Positions 17,477 to 26,361 of a stretch of 32,000 nucleotides of DNA are shown piece by piece. The notes under the pieces were generated by a model. It was not told the DNA's origin and made no database searches. It saw only the letters and a list, made by a program, of their open reading frames with translations. The translations under genes were made by a program, and so were the position numbers. This DNA comes from Pseudomonadota bacterium (GTDB lineage: Bacteria; Pseudomonadota; Gammaproteobacteria; Burkholderiales; Thiobacillaceae). Every line of letters starts with the position of its first letter. Within the stretch, counting starts at the first letter, position 1. The DNA lies in the NCBI GenBank assembly GCA_040754425.1, contig JBFMCR010000004.1, forward strand, positions 10,898 through 42,897, read 5' to 3'.

Positions 17477-18943
17477 ATGACTGAAACCGAATTCAACGAC
17501 CTTGCCCGCCACGGCTACAACCGCATCCCGCTTACGCTGGAGATGCCGGCCGACCTCGACACGCCGCTCGCGCTCTACCTCAAGCTTGCCAACGCCCCCT
17601 ATAGCTGCCTGCTGGAATCGGTGGTGGGCGGCGAGCGCTTCGGCCGCTATTCCATCATCGGCCTGCCGGCGCGCACACTGATCCGTGTGCGCCATCACAC
17701 CCTGACCGTGGAGCAGGACGGCGAGATCATGGAGGAATACGAGACCGCCGATCCGCTGGCGTTCATCGAGCAATACCTCGTCCGTTTCAAGGCCGCGCCG
17801 CTCGCGGGCGGCCCGCGCTTTGCCGGCGGGCTGGCCGGCTATTTCGGCTACGACACCATCCGCTACATCGAAAAGCGCCTGGCCAAAGATTTTGATAAGG
17901 CCCGGCCCAGGAAGCCCGACGAAATCAACGCGCCGGACATTCTGCTCATGCTCACCGACGAACTCGCGGTGGTGGACAACCTCTCCGGGCGGCTCACCCT
18001 CATCGTCTATACCGACCCCATGCAGCCCGGCGCCTATGAGGCGTCGCTCGCGCGCCTGAACGCCCACCGCGAGCGGCTGCAATCGCCGCTGACGCCTCCG
18101 AAAGCGCAGGCGGTTGCCGAAGCCGAGGCGGTGTCCGAATTCGGCGAAGACGCCTTCAAGGCCGCCGTGCTCAAGGCCAAGCAGTACATCCGTGACGGCG
18201 ACATCATGCAGGTGGTGTTGTCCCAGCGCATGCGCCGGCCGTTCGCGGCGAGCCCGTTGACACTCTACCGCGCCCTGCGCTCGCTCAACCCCTCGCCCTA
18301 CATGTTCTATTACGACATGGGCAACCACCACGTGGTCGGCTCCTCGCCCGAGATCCTGGTGCGGCGCGAAGGCGACACCGTCACCGTGCGGCCGATCGCC
18401 GGCACGCGACCGCGCGGCCGTGACCGCGAGCACGACCTCGCCCTGGAAAAGGAATTGCTGGCCGACCCCAAGGAATGCGCCGAGCATTTGCAACTGCTGG
18501 ACCTCGGCCGCAACGATCTCGGCCGCGTGGCCCGGATTGGTTCGGTCAGGGTCACAGAGAACATGAGCATAGAGCGCTATTCGCACGTCATGCACATCGT
18601 CTCCAACGTCGAAGGCAGGCTCAGGCCGGGCTTGAGTTCCATGGACGTGCTGCGCGCCACCTTCCCCGCCGGCACCGTGTCCGGCGCGCCCAAGGTGCGC
18701 GCCATGGAAATCATCGACGAACTGGAACCCGTAAAGCGCGGCATCTACGCCGGCGCGGTCGGCTACCTGGGCTTCGACGGCGACATGGATCTCGCCATCG
18801 CCATCCGCACCGCGGTGGTCAAGGACGGCACCCTGTACGTGCAGGCCGGCGCCGGCATCGTCGCCGACTCGGTGCCGGAAAACGAATGGGAAGAAACCCG
18901 CAACAAGGCGCGCGCCGTGGTGCGCGCGGCGGAGTTGTCATAG
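17477..18943 (+). CDS. trpE: Anthranilate synthase component I
   Basis: 488 aa with GYNRIPL...[13 protein letters not shown]-terminus, LESV Trp-feedback motif, and the chorismate-binding core ([25 protein letters not shown]...AGAGIVADS). Confidence 0.95.
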
Positions 18944-19113: not shown

Positions 19114-20421
<1,308 letters not shown>

Positions 20422-20435
20422 GATTTCACCTTTCC

Positions 20436-20522
20436 GTATGACATGACTGGTGGGACATTGTCATGACATGCCTGACATGTCAATCGGGATGTTTGGGCGA
20501 TGGGCCCCGAAATGTCATGCAT
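20436..20522. promoter_or_regulatory. Candidate enhancer (UAS) sites for the sigma54 activator
   Basis: Perfect 10-bp palindromes TGTCATGACA (20459-20468) and TGACATGTCA (20473-20482), plus half-site-like TGACATGAC (20439-20447) and TGTCATGC (20513-20520). They lie 20-100 bp upstream of the -24/-12 promoter. Confidence 0.4.
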
Positions 20523-20539
20523 CGCGGGCTTGCTCGGAC

Positions 20540-20555
20540 TGGCACGGCTATTGCT
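20540..20555 (+). promoter_or_regulatory. Sigma54 (-24/-12) promoter for sqr
   Basis: TGGCACggctaTTGCT matches the consensus TGGCAC-N5-TTGC(A/T) exactly. It sits 67 nt upstream of the sqr ATG and next to a bEBP gene. Confidence 0.75.
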
Positions 20556-20621
20556 GTTCAGAGCGCACGCCTGTCAGACAGGCGCATTGCTGACATAACG
20601 AGACACACGGAGAAAACCTGC

Positions 20622-21890
20622 ATGGCACACATTGTCATTCTGGGCGCGGGTATCGGCGGCATGACCATGGCTTATGAAATGCGTGAAAACGCGCGTTCGC
20701 AGGACAAGGTGACTGTCATTTCCAATTTGCCCTATTTCCAGTTCACCCCGTCCAATCCCTGGGTGGCGGTCAACTGGCGCACCCAATCCGACATCACCAT
20801 CCCGGCCGGCCCTTACCTCAACAAAAAAGGCATCGATTTCATCCCGGTAGGTGCCAGGCGCGTGCACCCCGAAAAGAACCAGATCGAACTGGCTGACGGC
20901 AGCGTCGTGGATTATGACTTCCTGGTCATCGCCACCGGCCCCAAGCTGGCTTTCGATGAAGTGGAGGGGCTGGGGCCGGATGGGCACACCCATTCGATCT
21001 GTCAGGTCGAGCATGCCGTCAAGTCCGGCAAGGCCTGGGACGAGTTCGTCAAGGATCCGGGCCACATCGTGGTCGGCGCGGCACAGGGTGCGTCCTGCTA
21101 CGGTCCGGCCTACGAGTTCGCCATGATCATGGACACCGACCTCAAGCGCCGGAAAATCCGCGACAAGGTGCCGATGACTTTCGTCACCGCCGAACCCTAC
21201 ATCGGCCATCTGGGCCTGGGCGGCGTGGGCGATTCCAAGAGCCTGCTGGAGTCGGCCATGCGCGATCGCCACATCAAGTGGATCTGCAACGCCAAGGTGA
21301 CCAAGGTCGAATCCGGCAGGATGTTCGTCGCCGAGCACAACGACAAGGGCGAAGTCATCAAGGAACACGTGCTCGACTTCAAGTACTCCATGATGCTGCC
21401 GGCGTTCAAGGGCATTGACGCGGTGTTCGGCGTGGAAGGTCTCGCCAATCCGCGCGGCTTCATCACCATCGATCCCTACCAGCGCAATCCCAAATTCCAG
21501 AACGTCTTTGCGGTCGGCGTGTGCGTCGCCATTCCGCCGGTCGAAGCCACCCCCGTGCCCACCGGCACGCCCAAGACCGGCTACATGATCGAATCCATGG
21601 TGACCGCCACCGCGCACAACATCCGCGCCGTTCTCGACGGCAAGGAGCCTGCCGAGAAAGCCACCTGGAACGCGGTCTGCCTGGCCGATTTCGGCGACGG
21701 CGGGGCGGCGTTCGTGGCCTTGCCGCAGATTCCGCCGCGCAACGTCAACTGGTTCAAGGAAGGCAAGTGGGTGCATCTGGCCAAGGTGGCCTTTGAAAAA
21801 TATTTCATGCGCAAGATGAAGAAAGGCAGCACCGAGCCACTGTACGAGAAGTATGTGCTGAGCCTCATGGGAGTCAAGAAACTCAAGTGA
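20622..21890 (+). CDS. sqr: Sulfide:quinone oxidoreductase, type I
   Basis: MAHIVILGAGIGGM..YFQFTPSNPWV..IATGPKLAF..HSICQVEHA..GASCYGPAYEF..EPYIGHLG..PKTGYMIESM..WNAVCLADFG..WVHLAKVAFEKYF. As far as I recall, it is colinear with Acidithiobacillus and Aquifex type I SQR, including the conserved Cys positions. Confidence 0.92.
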   Translation: MAHIVILGAGIGGMTMAYEMRENARSQDKVTVISNLPYFQFTPSNPWVAVNWRTQSDITIPAGPYLNKKGIDFIPVGARRVHPEKNQIELADGSVVDYDFLVIATGPKLAFDEVEGLGPDGHTHSICQVEHAVKSGKAWDEFVKDPGHIVVGAAQGASCYGPAYEFAMIMDTDLKRRKIRDKVPMTFVTAEPYIGHLGLGGVGDSKSLLESAMRDRHIKWICNAKVTKVESGRMFVAEHNDKGEVIKEHVLDFKYSMMLPAFKGIDAVFGVEGLANPRGFITIDPYQRNPKFQNVFAVGVCVAIPPVEATPVPTGTPKTGYMIESMVTATAHNIRAVLDGKEPAEKATWNAVCLADFGDGGAAFVALPQIPPRNVNWFKEGKWVHLAKVAFEKYFMRKMKKGSTEPLYEKYVLSLMGVKKLK

Positions 21891-22037
21891 GGCAGCTGCC
21901 CCATCCGGCGGGCTGTGGTGCCGGTCGGGCTTGTTTTCGGAATGACTGAAGGACTTCCCCCGGTACAAGGGGCTGGGCAGGCTTGGCGCCGAAACCGGCG
22001 ACCGAGTCTTCGTTTGTTTGACAAGAAGGAGACAACA

Positions 22038-23393
22038 ATGTCAGAAAGCAATAGCAGGCGCAATTTTCTGAAAATGGGCGGCGCGGTCGCCCTCGCGGGC
22101 ACCGCAGGCGGCATGGCCGTCCTCAGTGGCAATGCCGCGGCGGCGACCCGGAAATCCGCAGTCGGCGGCCGCACGACGGCAAACCTGCCCAAAGCCAGGG
22201 GGCCGCGCCTCGTGATCGTGGGCGGAGGCACCTCGGGACTTACCATCGCCAAATATGCCAAAAAGGAGTATCCCAAGTTCGACGTGGTGCTGGTGGAAAA
22301 GCGTGACATGTACTCGTCCTGCTTCTCCAGCAACCTGTGGTACTCGGGCATCATCAATCTGGAATTCCTGGCCGATCATAGCTTCCTCGATGCGGCACGC
22401 AACAACGGCTATGTCTATTTCAACGCCACGGTTACCGGCCTGGATCGCGCCAGCCGCACCCTGGTCACCAGCGAAGGCGACATCAAGTACGACTTCCTGG
22501 TGGTGGCGCCCGGCATTTCCTACGACTACGAGAAGATCGGCGTCAAGGATGCCGAGACCATGACTGCGCTGCGCCAGACCTTCCCCGGCGGCTTCATCTC
22601 GCCGACCGAGCACGTCACCATCCGCCGCAAGGTGCAGGAATTCGAGGGCGGCGTGTTCGTGCAGACGGTTCCCGGCGGCAATTACCGCTGCCTGCCCGGG
22701 CCTTACGAGCGTGCCTGTATGATCGCTTCCGTCATCAAGAAGAACAGGATCAAGGGCAAGGTGCTGGTGCTCGACGCCAACCCCGATATCACCATCAAGA
22801 AGGACGGCTTCCATGCCGCCTTCAACGAGTTGTACAAGGGCATCATCGAGTACAAGCCGTCTTCCGCGGTGACCGGCGTCGATGTCGGGAAGAAGGTGAT
22901 CAAGACCGAATTCGACACCATTTCCTTCGACGATGCGGCGATCTATTCCAACATCCGTGCCTCGACGCTGATCGAACAACTGGGCCTCATGGACCCCAAG
23001 AGCCCGCAAAAGGAAGCCGCCATCGACCAGTTGCGCTACAGCATCCGTGGCGACGATCGCGTGTTCGTGGCCGGCGACTCGCGTCCGCATCCTTACTCCA
23101 AGAGTGCCAACACCGCCAACACCGAGGGCAAGTACGTCGCCAAGGTGCTGGCCGCGCGCGCCCAGGGCAAGGAATTCGCCTGGTACAGCCCGCGCACCAT
23201 CTGCTATTCCATGGTGAACGCCAACCCGATGGAAGCCATCAGCGTCGATGCCGGCTACGTCCTGAACAAGGAAGGCACGGCCGTCAGCGGCTTCTCGCCC
23301 GACACCAAAACCTTCGAAAACCGCGACGCCGCCAAGGGCCAGGCCACGCTGGAATGGGCGCGCGGCATCTATCGTGACATGTTCGATGCCTGA
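22038..23393 (+). CDS. Periplasmic FccB/SoxF-like flavoprotein (flavocytochrome c sulfide dehydrogenase flavin subunit family)
   Basis: AAGGAG RBS before the ATG. TAT leader SRRNFLKMGGAVALAGTAGG...AAAA and GGGTSG FAD fold. Three Cys sit in FCSD-like contexts: YSSCFSSN (covalent-FAD Cys), YRCLPGPYERA and TICYSMV (redox pair). No CxxCH cytochrome gene is adjacent. Confidence 0.85.
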   Translation: MSESNSRRNFLKMGGAVALAGTAGGMAVLSGNAAAATRKSAVGGRTTANLPKARGPRLVIVGGGTSGLTIAKYAKKEYPKFDVVLVEKRDMYSSCFSSNLWYSGIINLEFLADHSFLDAARNNGYVYFNATVTGLDRASRTLVTSEGDIKYDFLVVAPGISYDYEKIGVKDAETMTALRQTFPGGFISPTEHVTIRRKVQEFEGGVFVQTVPGGNYRCLPGPYERACMIASVIKKNRIKGKVLVLDANPDITIKKDGFHAAFNELYKGIIEYKPSSAVTGVDVGKKVIKTEFDTISFDDAAIYSNIRASTLIEQLGLMDPKSPQKEAAIDQLRYSIRGDDRVFVAGDSRPHPYSKSANTANTEGKYVAKVLAARAQGKEFAWYSPRTICYSMVNANPMEAISVDAGYVLNKEGTAVSGFSPDTKTFENRDAAKGQATLEWARGIYRDMFDA

Positions 23394-23413
23394 GGTTTGT
23401 TGCCGTCCGTTTA

Positions 23414-23442
23414 CGGCCGCCCCTCGAGGCGGCCGCTTTTTG
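23414..23442 (+). terminator. Rho-independent terminator after the fccB-like gene
   Basis: CGGCCGCC-cctcga-GGCGGCCG stem-loop followed by CTTTTTG. Confidence 0.6.
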
Positions 23443-23507
23443 TGGTGCGCATCACGCGGCCTTGCCGTGTGAGGTCGTGCCGGAATTTTGTTTTTCGGAG
23501 TTGAAAC

Positions 23508-24212
23508 ATGGATAGACGCGGCTTTGTGAAAATCTGCGCGGGCAGCGCGGCGCTGGCCCTGAGCGGCCTGGGACGGGAAGTGCTGGCGGGCGATTACGAG
23601 ACCTTCCCGCCGGCAAGGCTCACCGACGGGCAGGGCAATCCGCTCAAGGCAAGTGCGATTCCCTCAGGCGAGGCCATGGTGTTTTCCTACCCGCTTGCCG
23701 GCGTGCCGTGCTTTCTCGTCAATCTGGGTGAACGGCCTGCCGGTGCCGGCACCGCCCTCGAGAACGAAGAAGGCGGCTACACTTGGACGGGCGGAGTCGG
23801 GCCCAAGGCCAACATCGTGGCCTTCGTGGCCATCTGCACCCATCAACTGAGCTATCCGCAGCCGGAAATCAGCTATCTGCGCTATGCCGCCGCCGGCAGC
23901 GAAATCGCCGGCGGCCCCGGCAAGATCGTCTGCTGCGCCCATGCCAGCGTGTTCGACCCGGCCGCGGGCGCGCAAGTCGTGAGCGGCCCGGCGACCATGC
24001 CCTTGCTGCCGGTGCGCCTGGCCCATGACGCGTCCACGGACGAACTGGCCGCGGACGGCATCATGGGCATGGCGTTCATCCAGCGCTTTTTCAAGACATA
24101 CCGGGCCGATCTGAACAGCCGTTACGGTCCCGGCGGCTATCGCCAGGCGGTTGGTGGAACTACAGCCTGCATCCCGCTCAGCCAGTACAGCGGCATCGTT
24201 CCCGCCTGCTGA
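23508..24212 (+). CDS. TAT-exported Rieske [2Fe-2S]-type protein, atypical
   Basis: GGAG RBS and twin-arginine leader MDRRGFVKICAGSAALAL. Candidate cluster ligands are CTH (box I) and CCAHAS (box II, CxxHxS), separated by 29 residues. A C-terminal tail carries 2 more Cys. Confidence 0.65.
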   Translation: MDRRGFVKICAGSAALALSGLGREVLAGDYETFPPARLTDGQGNPLKASAIPSGEAMVFSYPLAGVPCFLVNLGERPAGAGTALENEEGGYTWTGGVGPKANIVAFVAICTHQLSYPQPEISYLRYAAAGSEIAGGPGKIVCCAHASVFDPAAGAQVVSGPATMPLLPVRLAHDASTDELAADGIMGMAFIQRFFKTYRADLNSRYGPGGYRQAVGGTTACIPLSQYSGIVPAC

Positions 24213-24237
24213 TTTATCTGACGGCTTTTGCCTCTTC

Positions 24238-24262
24238 GGGCGCCTTCGGGCGCTCTTTTTTT
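24238..24262 (+). terminator. Weak rho-independent terminator after the Rieske gene
   Basis: GCGCC-ttcg-GGCGC short stem (24240-24253) followed by TCTTTTTTT. Confidence 0.45.
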
Positions 24263-25924: not shown

Positions 25925-26361
25925 ACAGGGAGGTAAGGGAGGGAATGGAGGAAAGCCTTCGTTATCTGGGCGAACAAATCATCGGTGCCGCGATGCGGGT
26001 GCATACGGCTCTTGGCCCCGGCATGCTGGAGAGTGCATACGAAGTCTGTCTGCACCATGAATTATCCAAATCCGGACTGCGTGTGGCACGTCAAGTCGAT
26101 TTGCCCATCGAATACGACGGGTTGAAAATGGATTCCGGCTATCGGCTTGATCTGGTAGTGGATGACTGTGTGGTGCTTGAATTGAAGGCAGTGGATAAGC
26201 TCACTCCCCTGCATACAGCTCAGTTGATAAGCTATTTAAGGCTTGGGCAGTACCCTGTTGGATATTTGCTCAACTTCAACGTCGTTCACATGAGGGATGG
26301 TATTCGGCGAATCTTGAACAAGCATTTGAATTAACCTCCCGCGCCTCCCATTCCTCCCTGT
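25925..26361 (+). mobile_element. 437-bp inverted-repeat-bounded cassette carrying the GxxExxY gene (family B copy 3, cargo-bearing)
   Basis: Arms ACAGGGAGGTAAGGGAGGGAATGGAGG (25925-25951) and CCTCCCGCGCCTCCCATTCCTCCCTGT (26335-26361) are 21/27 complementary. The ORF start and stop codons lie inside the arms. GC is lower than in the flanks. The same arm types occur without cargo at 15755-15834 and 16581-16660. Mobility is inferred, not shown. Confidence 0.45.
25945..26334 (+). CDS. GxxExxY protein (PD-(D/E)XK nuclease-like, PDDEXK_3 type)
   Basis: 129 aa with a GMLESAY motif near the N-terminus and D...ELK ([16 protein letters not shown]) as in PD-(D/E)XK folds. A/T-ending codons (TTA, AAA, TAT, ATT) are unlike the neighbouring trp genes. 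Confidence 0.85.

Follow-up and report, generated by a model that had tools for sequence, protein, structure and literature searches.

The question raised by this locus is where an FccB-like flavoprotein that stands beside no cytochrome gene would send its electrons. Flavocytochrome c sulfide dehydrogenase (FCSD) is one of the two classic sulfide-oxidizing enzymes and is defined as a flavoprotein-cytochrome c pair, and fccAB and sqr are the genes by which sulfide oxidation is scored in genome surveys. The stretch of DNA analysed here, called the window throughout, comprises 32,000 nucleotides of a Thiobacillaceae genome (GenBank assembly GCA_040754425.1, contig JBFMCR010000004.1, positions 10,898 to 42,897), and it carries an FccB-like gene followed on the same strand by a gene for a Rieske-like protein:

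22038-23393, plus strand: FCSD/FccB-type flavoprotein of 451 amino acids, exported by twin-arginine translocation (TAT), as identified from Pfam and NCBIfam domains, alignments to 1FCD_A, 3VRD_B and 5N1T_A, and a clade alignment

23508-24212, plus strand: predicted exported AioB/SoxF-like Rieske protein of 234 amino acids with a twin-arginine leader, as identified from ligand boxes, profile matches and an AlphaFold2 (AF2) model

Our analysis points to a previously undescribed two-part form of a known sulfur-cycle enzyme. We consider it probable, with appreciable room for doubt, that the pair constitutes a periplasmic FCSD-type sulfide dehydrogenase in which an AioB/SoxF-like Rieske [2Fe-2S] protein replaces FccA ("flavo-Rieske"). 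The gene module is well supported by the genomes compared, and the proposed biochemistry is predicted from them; we infer the physical association of the two proteins, the presence of a 2Fe-2S cluster in the Rieske protein and sulfide as the substrate.

The same gene order in dozens of sulfur bacteria strongly supports a partnership of the two predicted proteins. The Rieske gene lies directly 3' of the flavoprotein gene, on the same strand, in all 53 genome loci with sufficient DNA, and this order recurs in 9 further metagenome loci and in 10 of 10 matches found among 151 Campylobacterota genomes; in total, 70 full-length adjacent pairs come from the Beta-, Gamma- and Alphaproteobacteria and the Campylobacterota. 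In the reverse direction, flavoprotein orthologs (E <= 1e-196, with nothing between 1e-196 and 1e-80) occur in 7 of 301 genomes of the order, and the Rieske gene is found at the 3' end of all seven. The median gap between the two genes is 66 nt (53 loci), compared with 114 nt in the window. The pair is present in cultured strains, namely Thiobacillus thioparus DSM 505, Rhodanobacter thiooxydans LCS2, Comamonas badia DSM 17552, Denitratimonas tolerans KACC 17565 and a Castellaniella strain, as well as in metagenome-assembled genomes (MAGs) of Albidovulum and Arcobacter. An initial annotation of this DNA had beforehand made the idea of a joint enzyme depend on a conserved co-occurrence of the Rieske-like and FccB-like genes, and conserved it is, in both directions of search and with one change on the Rieske family tree described below. 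Pairwise distances of the flavoprotein and the Rieske protein also correlate (r = 0.88; Mantel 0/999), which shows co-inheritance and not contact.

Two loci depart from the usual form of the pair. At L153 (G557:C39:14800-18800), an in-frame TAA (IAK*AKK) interrupts the flavoprotein gene, and the tail and terminal cysteine of the Rieske protein have been lost by a frameshift; this double damage reflects either joint decay of both genes or assembly errors. In a Gallionellaceae MAG (L023:9001-10681), two tandem Rieske paralogs, 43% and 60% identical to that of the window, lie 3' of one flavoprotein gene.

The flavoprotein itself bears the marks of an FCSD subunit. Its open reading frame (ORF) is listed as 21915-23393(+), and the homolog alignment sets the start at the ATG at 22038 (MSESNSRRNFLKMGG). 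The Pfam models FCSD_central (PF21706, 8.6e-26) and FCSD-flav_bind (PF09242, 7.5e-8) both match above their cut-offs, and residues 55-423 align with the crystallized FccB proteins 1FCD_A, 3VRD_B and 5N1T_A at E values of 1e-34 to 1e-38 (1.9e-38 for 1FCD_A). The motifs YSSCFSSN, YRCLPGPYERA and CYSMV, which the initial annotation had singled out together with a TAT leader, fall on the cysteine that links flavin adenine dinucleotide (FAD) and on the redox-active cysteine pair of Allochromatium vinosum FccB: C95 (FAD-linking) and C218/C389 (redox-active) match C42, C161 and C337 of that protein, and they are invariant or nearly so across the clade alignment. The leader was likewise borne out, by TAT_signal PF10518 (23.0 bits, cut-off 22.7) and TIGR01409 (20.5 bits, cut-off 16.7). 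The protein belongs to a separate orthogroup, with 65-85% identity within the Beta- and Gammaproteobacteria and about 50% to members from the Alphaproteobacteria and Campylobacterota. What sets all pair-linked flavoproteins apart from 1FCD and from the FccB paralogs of the organism's own genome is an LPKAKGPR motif ahead of the Rossmann fold together with an additional Cys227 (PYERAC).

It had been noted that no fccA gene stands beside the flavoprotein gene, and this was confirmed. None of the four CxxCH strings in the 32-kb window lies in a credible gene: the stop-to-stop frames around them are 69 codons long at most, and their third-position GC content is low. No conserved CxxCH gene adjoins the pair in 55 loci. 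Elsewhere, the same genome (G000) encodes two other FccB paralogs, 37% and 33% identical to the window flavoprotein, each directly preceded by a monohaem cytochrome c gene with a Sec-type leader. Both pairs lie outside the window:

G000 C12, about 128055-128348 then 128378-129643: cytochrome c gene followed by FccB paralog gene

G000 C18, about 372-707 then 711-2015: cytochrome c gene followed by FccB paralog gene

The organism holds two classical cytochrome-flavoprotein pairs and one flavoprotein-Rieske pair. An fccA cytochrome encoded elsewhere had been named as a competing candidate for the partner of the window flavoprotein; two fccA-like genes do exist in the genome, but each lies directly 5' of its own FccB paralog and serves as an internal control for the Rieske-linked flavoprotein. 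The C12 and C18 paralogs have a TAT leader that ends in a lipobox-like ...AGC motif. With regard to other carriers, the genome has 26 class I c-type cytochrome domain matches; a high-potential iron-sulfur protein (PF01355) was not found in it, and a search for cytochrome c' (PF01322) gave no match in this genome and none in the control genomes either.

The Rieske nature predicted for the product of 23508-24212 rests on profile matches, sub-threshold NCBIfam matches and the fold of the AF2 model. The protein starts MDRRGFVK..., continues with C110-T-H112, 29 residues and C142-C143-A-H145-A-S, and ends in ...VPAC. The ligand pattern, CTH and CCAHAS separated by 29 residues, was recognized in the initial annotation, and it holds on alignment, since C110/H112 and C142/H145 coincide with the cluster ligands of SoxF and AioB. 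The same annotation was right that the second box-I cysteine is missing and that the C-terminal tail contains a cysteine: the protein has neither disulfide cysteine of the bc1 or A. faecalis AioB type (box I CTHQLS, box II CCAH, with L/S and A at the aligned positions), and its tail of about 45 residues (about 188-234) terminates in an invariant Cys234. A profile of 16 homologs matches Sulfolobus SoxF 1JM1 (3e-15) and AioB (3e-10), and among NCBIfam models the sub-threshold matches are SoxL2 TIGR03171 (2.5e-25, 89.1 bits, cut-off 582.1) and arsenite_ox_S TIGR02694 (52.8 bits, cut-off 95.65); no model of this family exists in NCBIfam 20.0 or in Pfam. The AF2 model, built with 95 homologs, has a predicted local distance difference test score (pLDDT) of 92.3 and a predicted template modelling score of 0.85. 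It superposes on AioB with Z 15.5 and a root-mean-square deviation of 2.1 Å over 125 of 128 residues, and its residues 30-233 superpose on SoxF at Z 13.2, the long inter-box loop and the C-terminal extension included; Foldseek gives a probability of 1.0 against both 1JM1 and 1G8J_B. The C-terminal tail is modelled as ordered and packed (pLDDT 94-98). As to the TAT leader claimed for this protein, the twin-arginine motif is there by eye (RRxFxKxC), but the TAT hidden Markov models of Pfam and NCBIfam give no match; TIGR01409, which had been suggested as a check, misses the Rieske protein and matches the flavoprotein. The conserved Cys10 of the leader was considered as a lipobox cysteine and rejected, as it sits right after the two arginines and the preceding residues are unsuitable.

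The wider Rieske family bears on what the flavoprotein might need from its neighbour. A sample of 301 genomes from the class yielded relatives at 33-47% identity in 16, and a sample of 301 from the order yielded them in 62; each tally counts one genome flagged unpublished (G296 and G326), on which nothing else in this analysis depends. Among the loci fetched, most of these relatives stand alone. We classified box II in 130 full-length family members: it reads CCxH in all 61 flavoprotein-adjacent members with a recognisable box, and CCxE, CCxD or CCxN in all 42 non-adjacent ones. In the stand-alone relatives the second histidine ligand is gone (CCSE, CCAD, CCAN), and the CC pair, the TAT leader and the terminal cysteine remain. 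Two cysteines, C143 next to the ligand C142 and C234 at the very end, vary nowhere in the family, not even in members without the histidine. On a tree of 131 family members, obtained by a quick IQ-TREE search and containing some long branches, adjacency to the flavoprotein gene needs one change. At the level of sequence, then, a complete 2Cys-2His centre and a flavoprotein partner go together. Because CCxH and adjacency match exactly and a single change on the tree suffices, the full cluster and the flavoprotein partner would seem to be linked, which is expected if the flavoprotein needs a redox cluster.

The possibility that the distant Rieske relatives might reveal a second enzyme partner was rejected, their neighbours being mostly housekeeping genes (histone deacetylase-like, AmtB, AcrB, Aat/Ate, PyrD). 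The exception is found in five genomes of different families, where a Rieske gene lacking the histidine ends an operon of FdnG-like molybdenum enzyme, FdnH-like 4Fe-4S subunit, small ORF, cytochrome b561 and ankyrin-repeat genes:

About 6000-6720 in L063, L067, L068, L069 and L070: His-less Rieske genes ending FdnGH-type, formate-dehydrogenase-like operons

The DNA between and behind the two genes of the window contains three hairpins:

23414-23441, plus strand: intercistronic GC hairpin with its stem at 23414-23435 (8 G-C pairs), then CTTTTT; terminator- or attenuator-like

23442-23496, plus strand: second hairpin with a T-rich tract, just 5' of the GGAG ribosome-binding site of the Rieske gene, as judged from fold and sequence

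24238-24262, plus strand: terminator-like hairpin with a T7 run, which closes the module ahead of trpG

The 114-nt gap (23394-23507) folds at -49.8 kcal/mol (z = -3.49), and a GC hairpin with a T run is present at the same intergenic place in about 30 of 53 related loci. No promoter-like site was found in the gap between the flavoprotein and Rieske genes. Because the gap is short in general and runs into the ribosome-binding site with no promoter-like site in it, the Rieske gene must be read from upstream. The conserved hairpins probably reduce the Rieske part of the transcript or make it more stable, and so set the ratio or the stability of the parts of the message. The initial annotation had cautioned that the two genes may not be co-transcribed; the terminator-like hairpin is real, but it is a conserved intercistronic feature without room for a promoter behind it and does not speak against coupled expression.

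The pair occurs as a unit in at least four unrelated neighbourhoods. It lies with a sigma54 regulator and a sulfide:quinone oxidoreductase (SQR) gene in the window and in 6-7 Thiobacillaceae loci; with an OmpR-type two-component system and a SulP transporter in Gallionellaceae and Hydrogenophilales; and with genes for SoxY, a SoxZ-like protein, a SorA-like molybdoenzyme, cytochrome c, rhodanese and YeeE in Rhodanobacteraceae and relatives (7-8 loci). In the fourth, a LysR-mtoX(SBP56)-SCO1-mauG-fae series lies directly 5' of the pair on the same strand, as in T. thioparus DSM 505 (L011:2214-10702) and in L010, L012 and L022. The methanethiol oxidase MtoX is periplasmic and releases H2S, formaldehyde and H2O2 (PMC5739008). 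Because MtoX yields H2S and formaldehyde, a sulfide dehydrogenase and a formaldehyde-activating enzyme would be expected next in order. On the other side, loci of this L011 type have rhodanese, GcvH-like, dihydrolipoamide-dehydrogenase-like and OsmC-like genes. In 6 of 10 Campylobacterota loci, the pair is followed on its 3' side by a gene for a protein of about 135 amino acids that ends in CxxCH-x-R-x-R-x-W and matches cytochrome c' PF01322 below threshold:

L159:2230-2637, L162:2227-2637 and L158:1061-1465 (minus strand), also L160, L161 and L164: Campylobacterota cytochrome c'-like genes

This cytochrome c'-like protein may be an electron acceptor.

In the proposed enzyme, sulfide would be oxidized at Cys218/Cys389 of the flavoprotein, and two electrons would pass to the covalently bound FAD, as the conserved residues and the FCSD mechanism suggest. 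The Rieske centre, judging from the gene pairing, the fold and the ligands, would accept the electrons singly, and it would presumably hand them to soluble periplasmic c-type cytochromes. In work on the bc1 and SoxF Rieske proteins, a serine after box II goes with a fairly high potential. This residue is conserved here as Ser147; with a fairly high potential, transfer from FAD through the Rieske centre to cytochrome c would therefore be downhill.

Several observations weigh against a stable two-subunit enzyme of this kind. The Pfam model PF00355, also put forward as a check by the initial annotation, does not detect the Rieske protein, and no Pfam family does so at E <= 0.01, because the family is too divergent for the model. 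A search for longer proteins found no fused flavoprotein-Rieske protein, which is weak evidence. Each protein has its own export leader, so that cytoplasmic pre-assembly of a complex is not implied; the existence of stand-alone relatives means that the Rieske family does not intrinsically require a flavoprotein; and the terminator-like hairpin between the genes in many genomes may mean unequal amounts and not a 1:1 complex. Moreover, a related monomeric flavoprotein from an Aquificae bacterium, with a Rieske gene alongside, reduced horse cytochrome c unaided (PMC3504083). Four of these points, namely the TAT-type leader on each protein, the unequal dosage suggested by the conserved intercistronic hairpins, the stand-alone relatives and the activity of recombinant DhsU1 of the Aquificae bacterium as a monomer (PMC3504083), favour a functional link without a stable enzyme, in which the flavoprotein would be monomeric like SoxF or DhsU1 and the Rieske protein would be a dedicated soluble shuttle in transient contact with it. 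However, the preservation of gene order and short gap over four bacterial classes or phyla is what subunit genes typically show; AioB, structurally the nearest relative, is held tightly as a subunit; and the stand-alone relatives, having lost a cluster ligand, are no simple free Rieske carriers. Cytochrome c or azurin, for comparison, meets arsenite oxidase transiently. Since the hairpins weakly favour unequal dosage, we keep the dedicated shuttle beside the stable heterodimer as a possibility to be taken seriously, though not a probable one. That the adjacency is meaningless and the two genes independent, as the terminator-like hairpin between them might suggest, is hardly credible in view of 70 of 70 pairs adjacent, seven of seven in the reverse direction and one change on the tree, of the joint movement of the pair through the unrelated neighbourhoods, and of a gap of 50-80 nt that is filled by the hairpin and the ribosome-binding site and leaves no room for a promoter.

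The substrate might also be other than free sulfide, for instance polysulfide, SoxY-bound sulfane sulfur, thiosulfate or an organic thiol. The SoxY, SoxZ-like and SorA-like genes near the pair in 7-8 loci would fit such a substrate, as would the distance of the flavoprotein orthogroup from the cytochrome-linked paralogs and the extra conserved Cys227 and LPKAKGPR motif; yet all FCSD sulfide-oxidation residues are conserved, and the pair lies with SQR under a sigma54 regulator in the window and, in T. thioparus, comes after the gene for methanethiol oxidase, which releases H2S, so that we regard another substrate as unlikely. It appears very improbable that the Rieske-like protein is a sulfur-handling or maturation partner, with Cys143 and Cys234 taking sulfane sulfur from the flavoprotein. 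The two cysteines are invariant family-wide even where the histidine ligand is lost, and the terminal Cys234 resembles the C-terminal carrier cysteine of SoxY; against this, the tail is modelled as ordered and packed and offers no free arm, and the flavoprotein-linked clade is precisely the one with the full 2Cys-2His set, which suggests that it is the redox cluster that counts in the partnership. A combination of both functions, in which a persulfide relay of Cys143, Cys234 and flavoprotein Cys227 would carry off the sulfane-sulfur product and the cluster would take the electrons, is in our judgement decidedly unlikely. If it were true, electron and sulfur transfer would be coupled in one small subunit, and the wider family, His-less stand-alone members included, would make up a new class of redox/sulfur proteins in the periplasm.

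The preferred reading, an FCSD-type dehydrogenase with a Rieske subunit, combines features of several known systems. As in FccAB (Allochromatium vinosum 1FCD, Thermochromatium 3VRD, Thioalkalivibrio 5N1T), there is a periplasmic TAT flavoprotein with the same three domains and catalytic cysteines, encoded beside a small one-electron redox protein. In contrast to FccAB, the partner gene lies downstream and encodes a Rieske 2Fe-2S protein in place of an upstream c-type cytochrome, and the flavoprotein falls in an orthogroup of its own (33-37% identity to the cytochrome-linked paralogs), with the LPKAKGPR motif and Cys227. AioB (1G8J/1G8K, 4AAY) is the best structural match of the Rieske protein (Z 15.5), likewise has a TAT-type leader, and acts as the electron-exit subunit of a periplasmic dehydrogenase, the role proposed here for the Rieske protein; presumably the AioB of NT-26, to go by the titles of Protein Data Bank entries, also lacks the Rieske disulfide. 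The window protein differs from AioB in that no molybdopterin AioA gene adjoins it, the upstream gene encoding the flavoprotein in all loci, and in that its ligand boxes are separated by 29 residues as opposed to about 15, with an extra cysteine after the first box II ligand and a 45-residue tail ending in cysteine. Sulfolobus SoxF/SoxL2 (1JM1; TIGR03171) provides the best sequence-profile match and has the long inter-box loop and the C-terminal extension, whereas these proteins keep the disulfide (CPCH) and belong to quinol-oxidizing Rieske/cytochrome b complexes. The monomeric SoxF of Paracoccus and DhsU1 of the Sulfurihydrogenibium-like LSSB are, like the flavoprotein here, of the FccB type without a bound cytochrome.

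The arrangement had been taken to be undescribed, and in the literature searched, which left subscription papers outside, we found no functional description of an FccB-Rieske pairing. The sole trace is a gene map of the Aquificae bacterium LSSB in which a Rieske gene lies between the FccB-like dhsU1 and dhsU2, with no role proposed for it (PMC3504083). If the preferred reading is true, the pair would be a widespread third form of sulfide-oxidizing enzyme, would open a new way for electrons to pass from sulfide into respiratory chains, and would account for many "orphan fccB" annotations in Thiobacillus, Gallionellaceae, Comamonas, Rhodanobacter, Dokdonella, Arcobacter and relatives. It would also be, as far as the literature searched shows, the first Rieske centre wired to a periplasmic enzyme of the flavin disulfide-reductase type, and it would provide a function for a Rieske family that is invisible to Pfam.

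The pair belongs to a larger sulfide module in the window. The gene order is trpE (17477-18943), sigma54 activator, SQR-type gene, FccB-like gene, Rieske-like gene, trpG and trpD, the module of regulator, sqr, flavoprotein and Rieske genes (19114-24262) being inserted between trpE and trpG. This insertion point recurs in L003, L004, L007, L009 and L016, and other Thiobacillus genomes have the flavoprotein-Rieske pair at different sites. Upstream of the pair lie:

19114-20421, minus strand: sigma54-dependent transcriptional activator with an N-terminal Cys-rich PAS domain (Pfam Sigma54_activat, 5.8e-65, PAS_4 and HTH_8), divergent from the sulfide genes

20540-20554, plus strand: sigma54 promoter consensus TGGCACGGCTATTGC with -24/-12 elements, 5' of sqr, an exact match to TGGCAC-N5-TTGC

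20622-21890, plus strand: sulfide:quinone oxidoreductase-like flavoprotein (Pfam Pyr_redox_2; NCBIfam SQR_III 4.6e-34, sub-threshold)

The arrangement with the sigma54 regulator is repeated in L003, L004, L007, L009, L014, L016 and L018, and the product of 19114-20421 is likely a sulfide/polysulfide-responsive regulator. The promoter in front of sqr is the single exact TGGCAC-N5-TTGC match in the whole window, and the pair, which follows sqr, would probably be driven from it under the putative sulfide-responsive activator. The start codon of the SQR gene is uncertain, because its ORF is open from 20463. Further downstream, an ORF of 129 amino acids lies at 25945-26334, between trpD and trpC.

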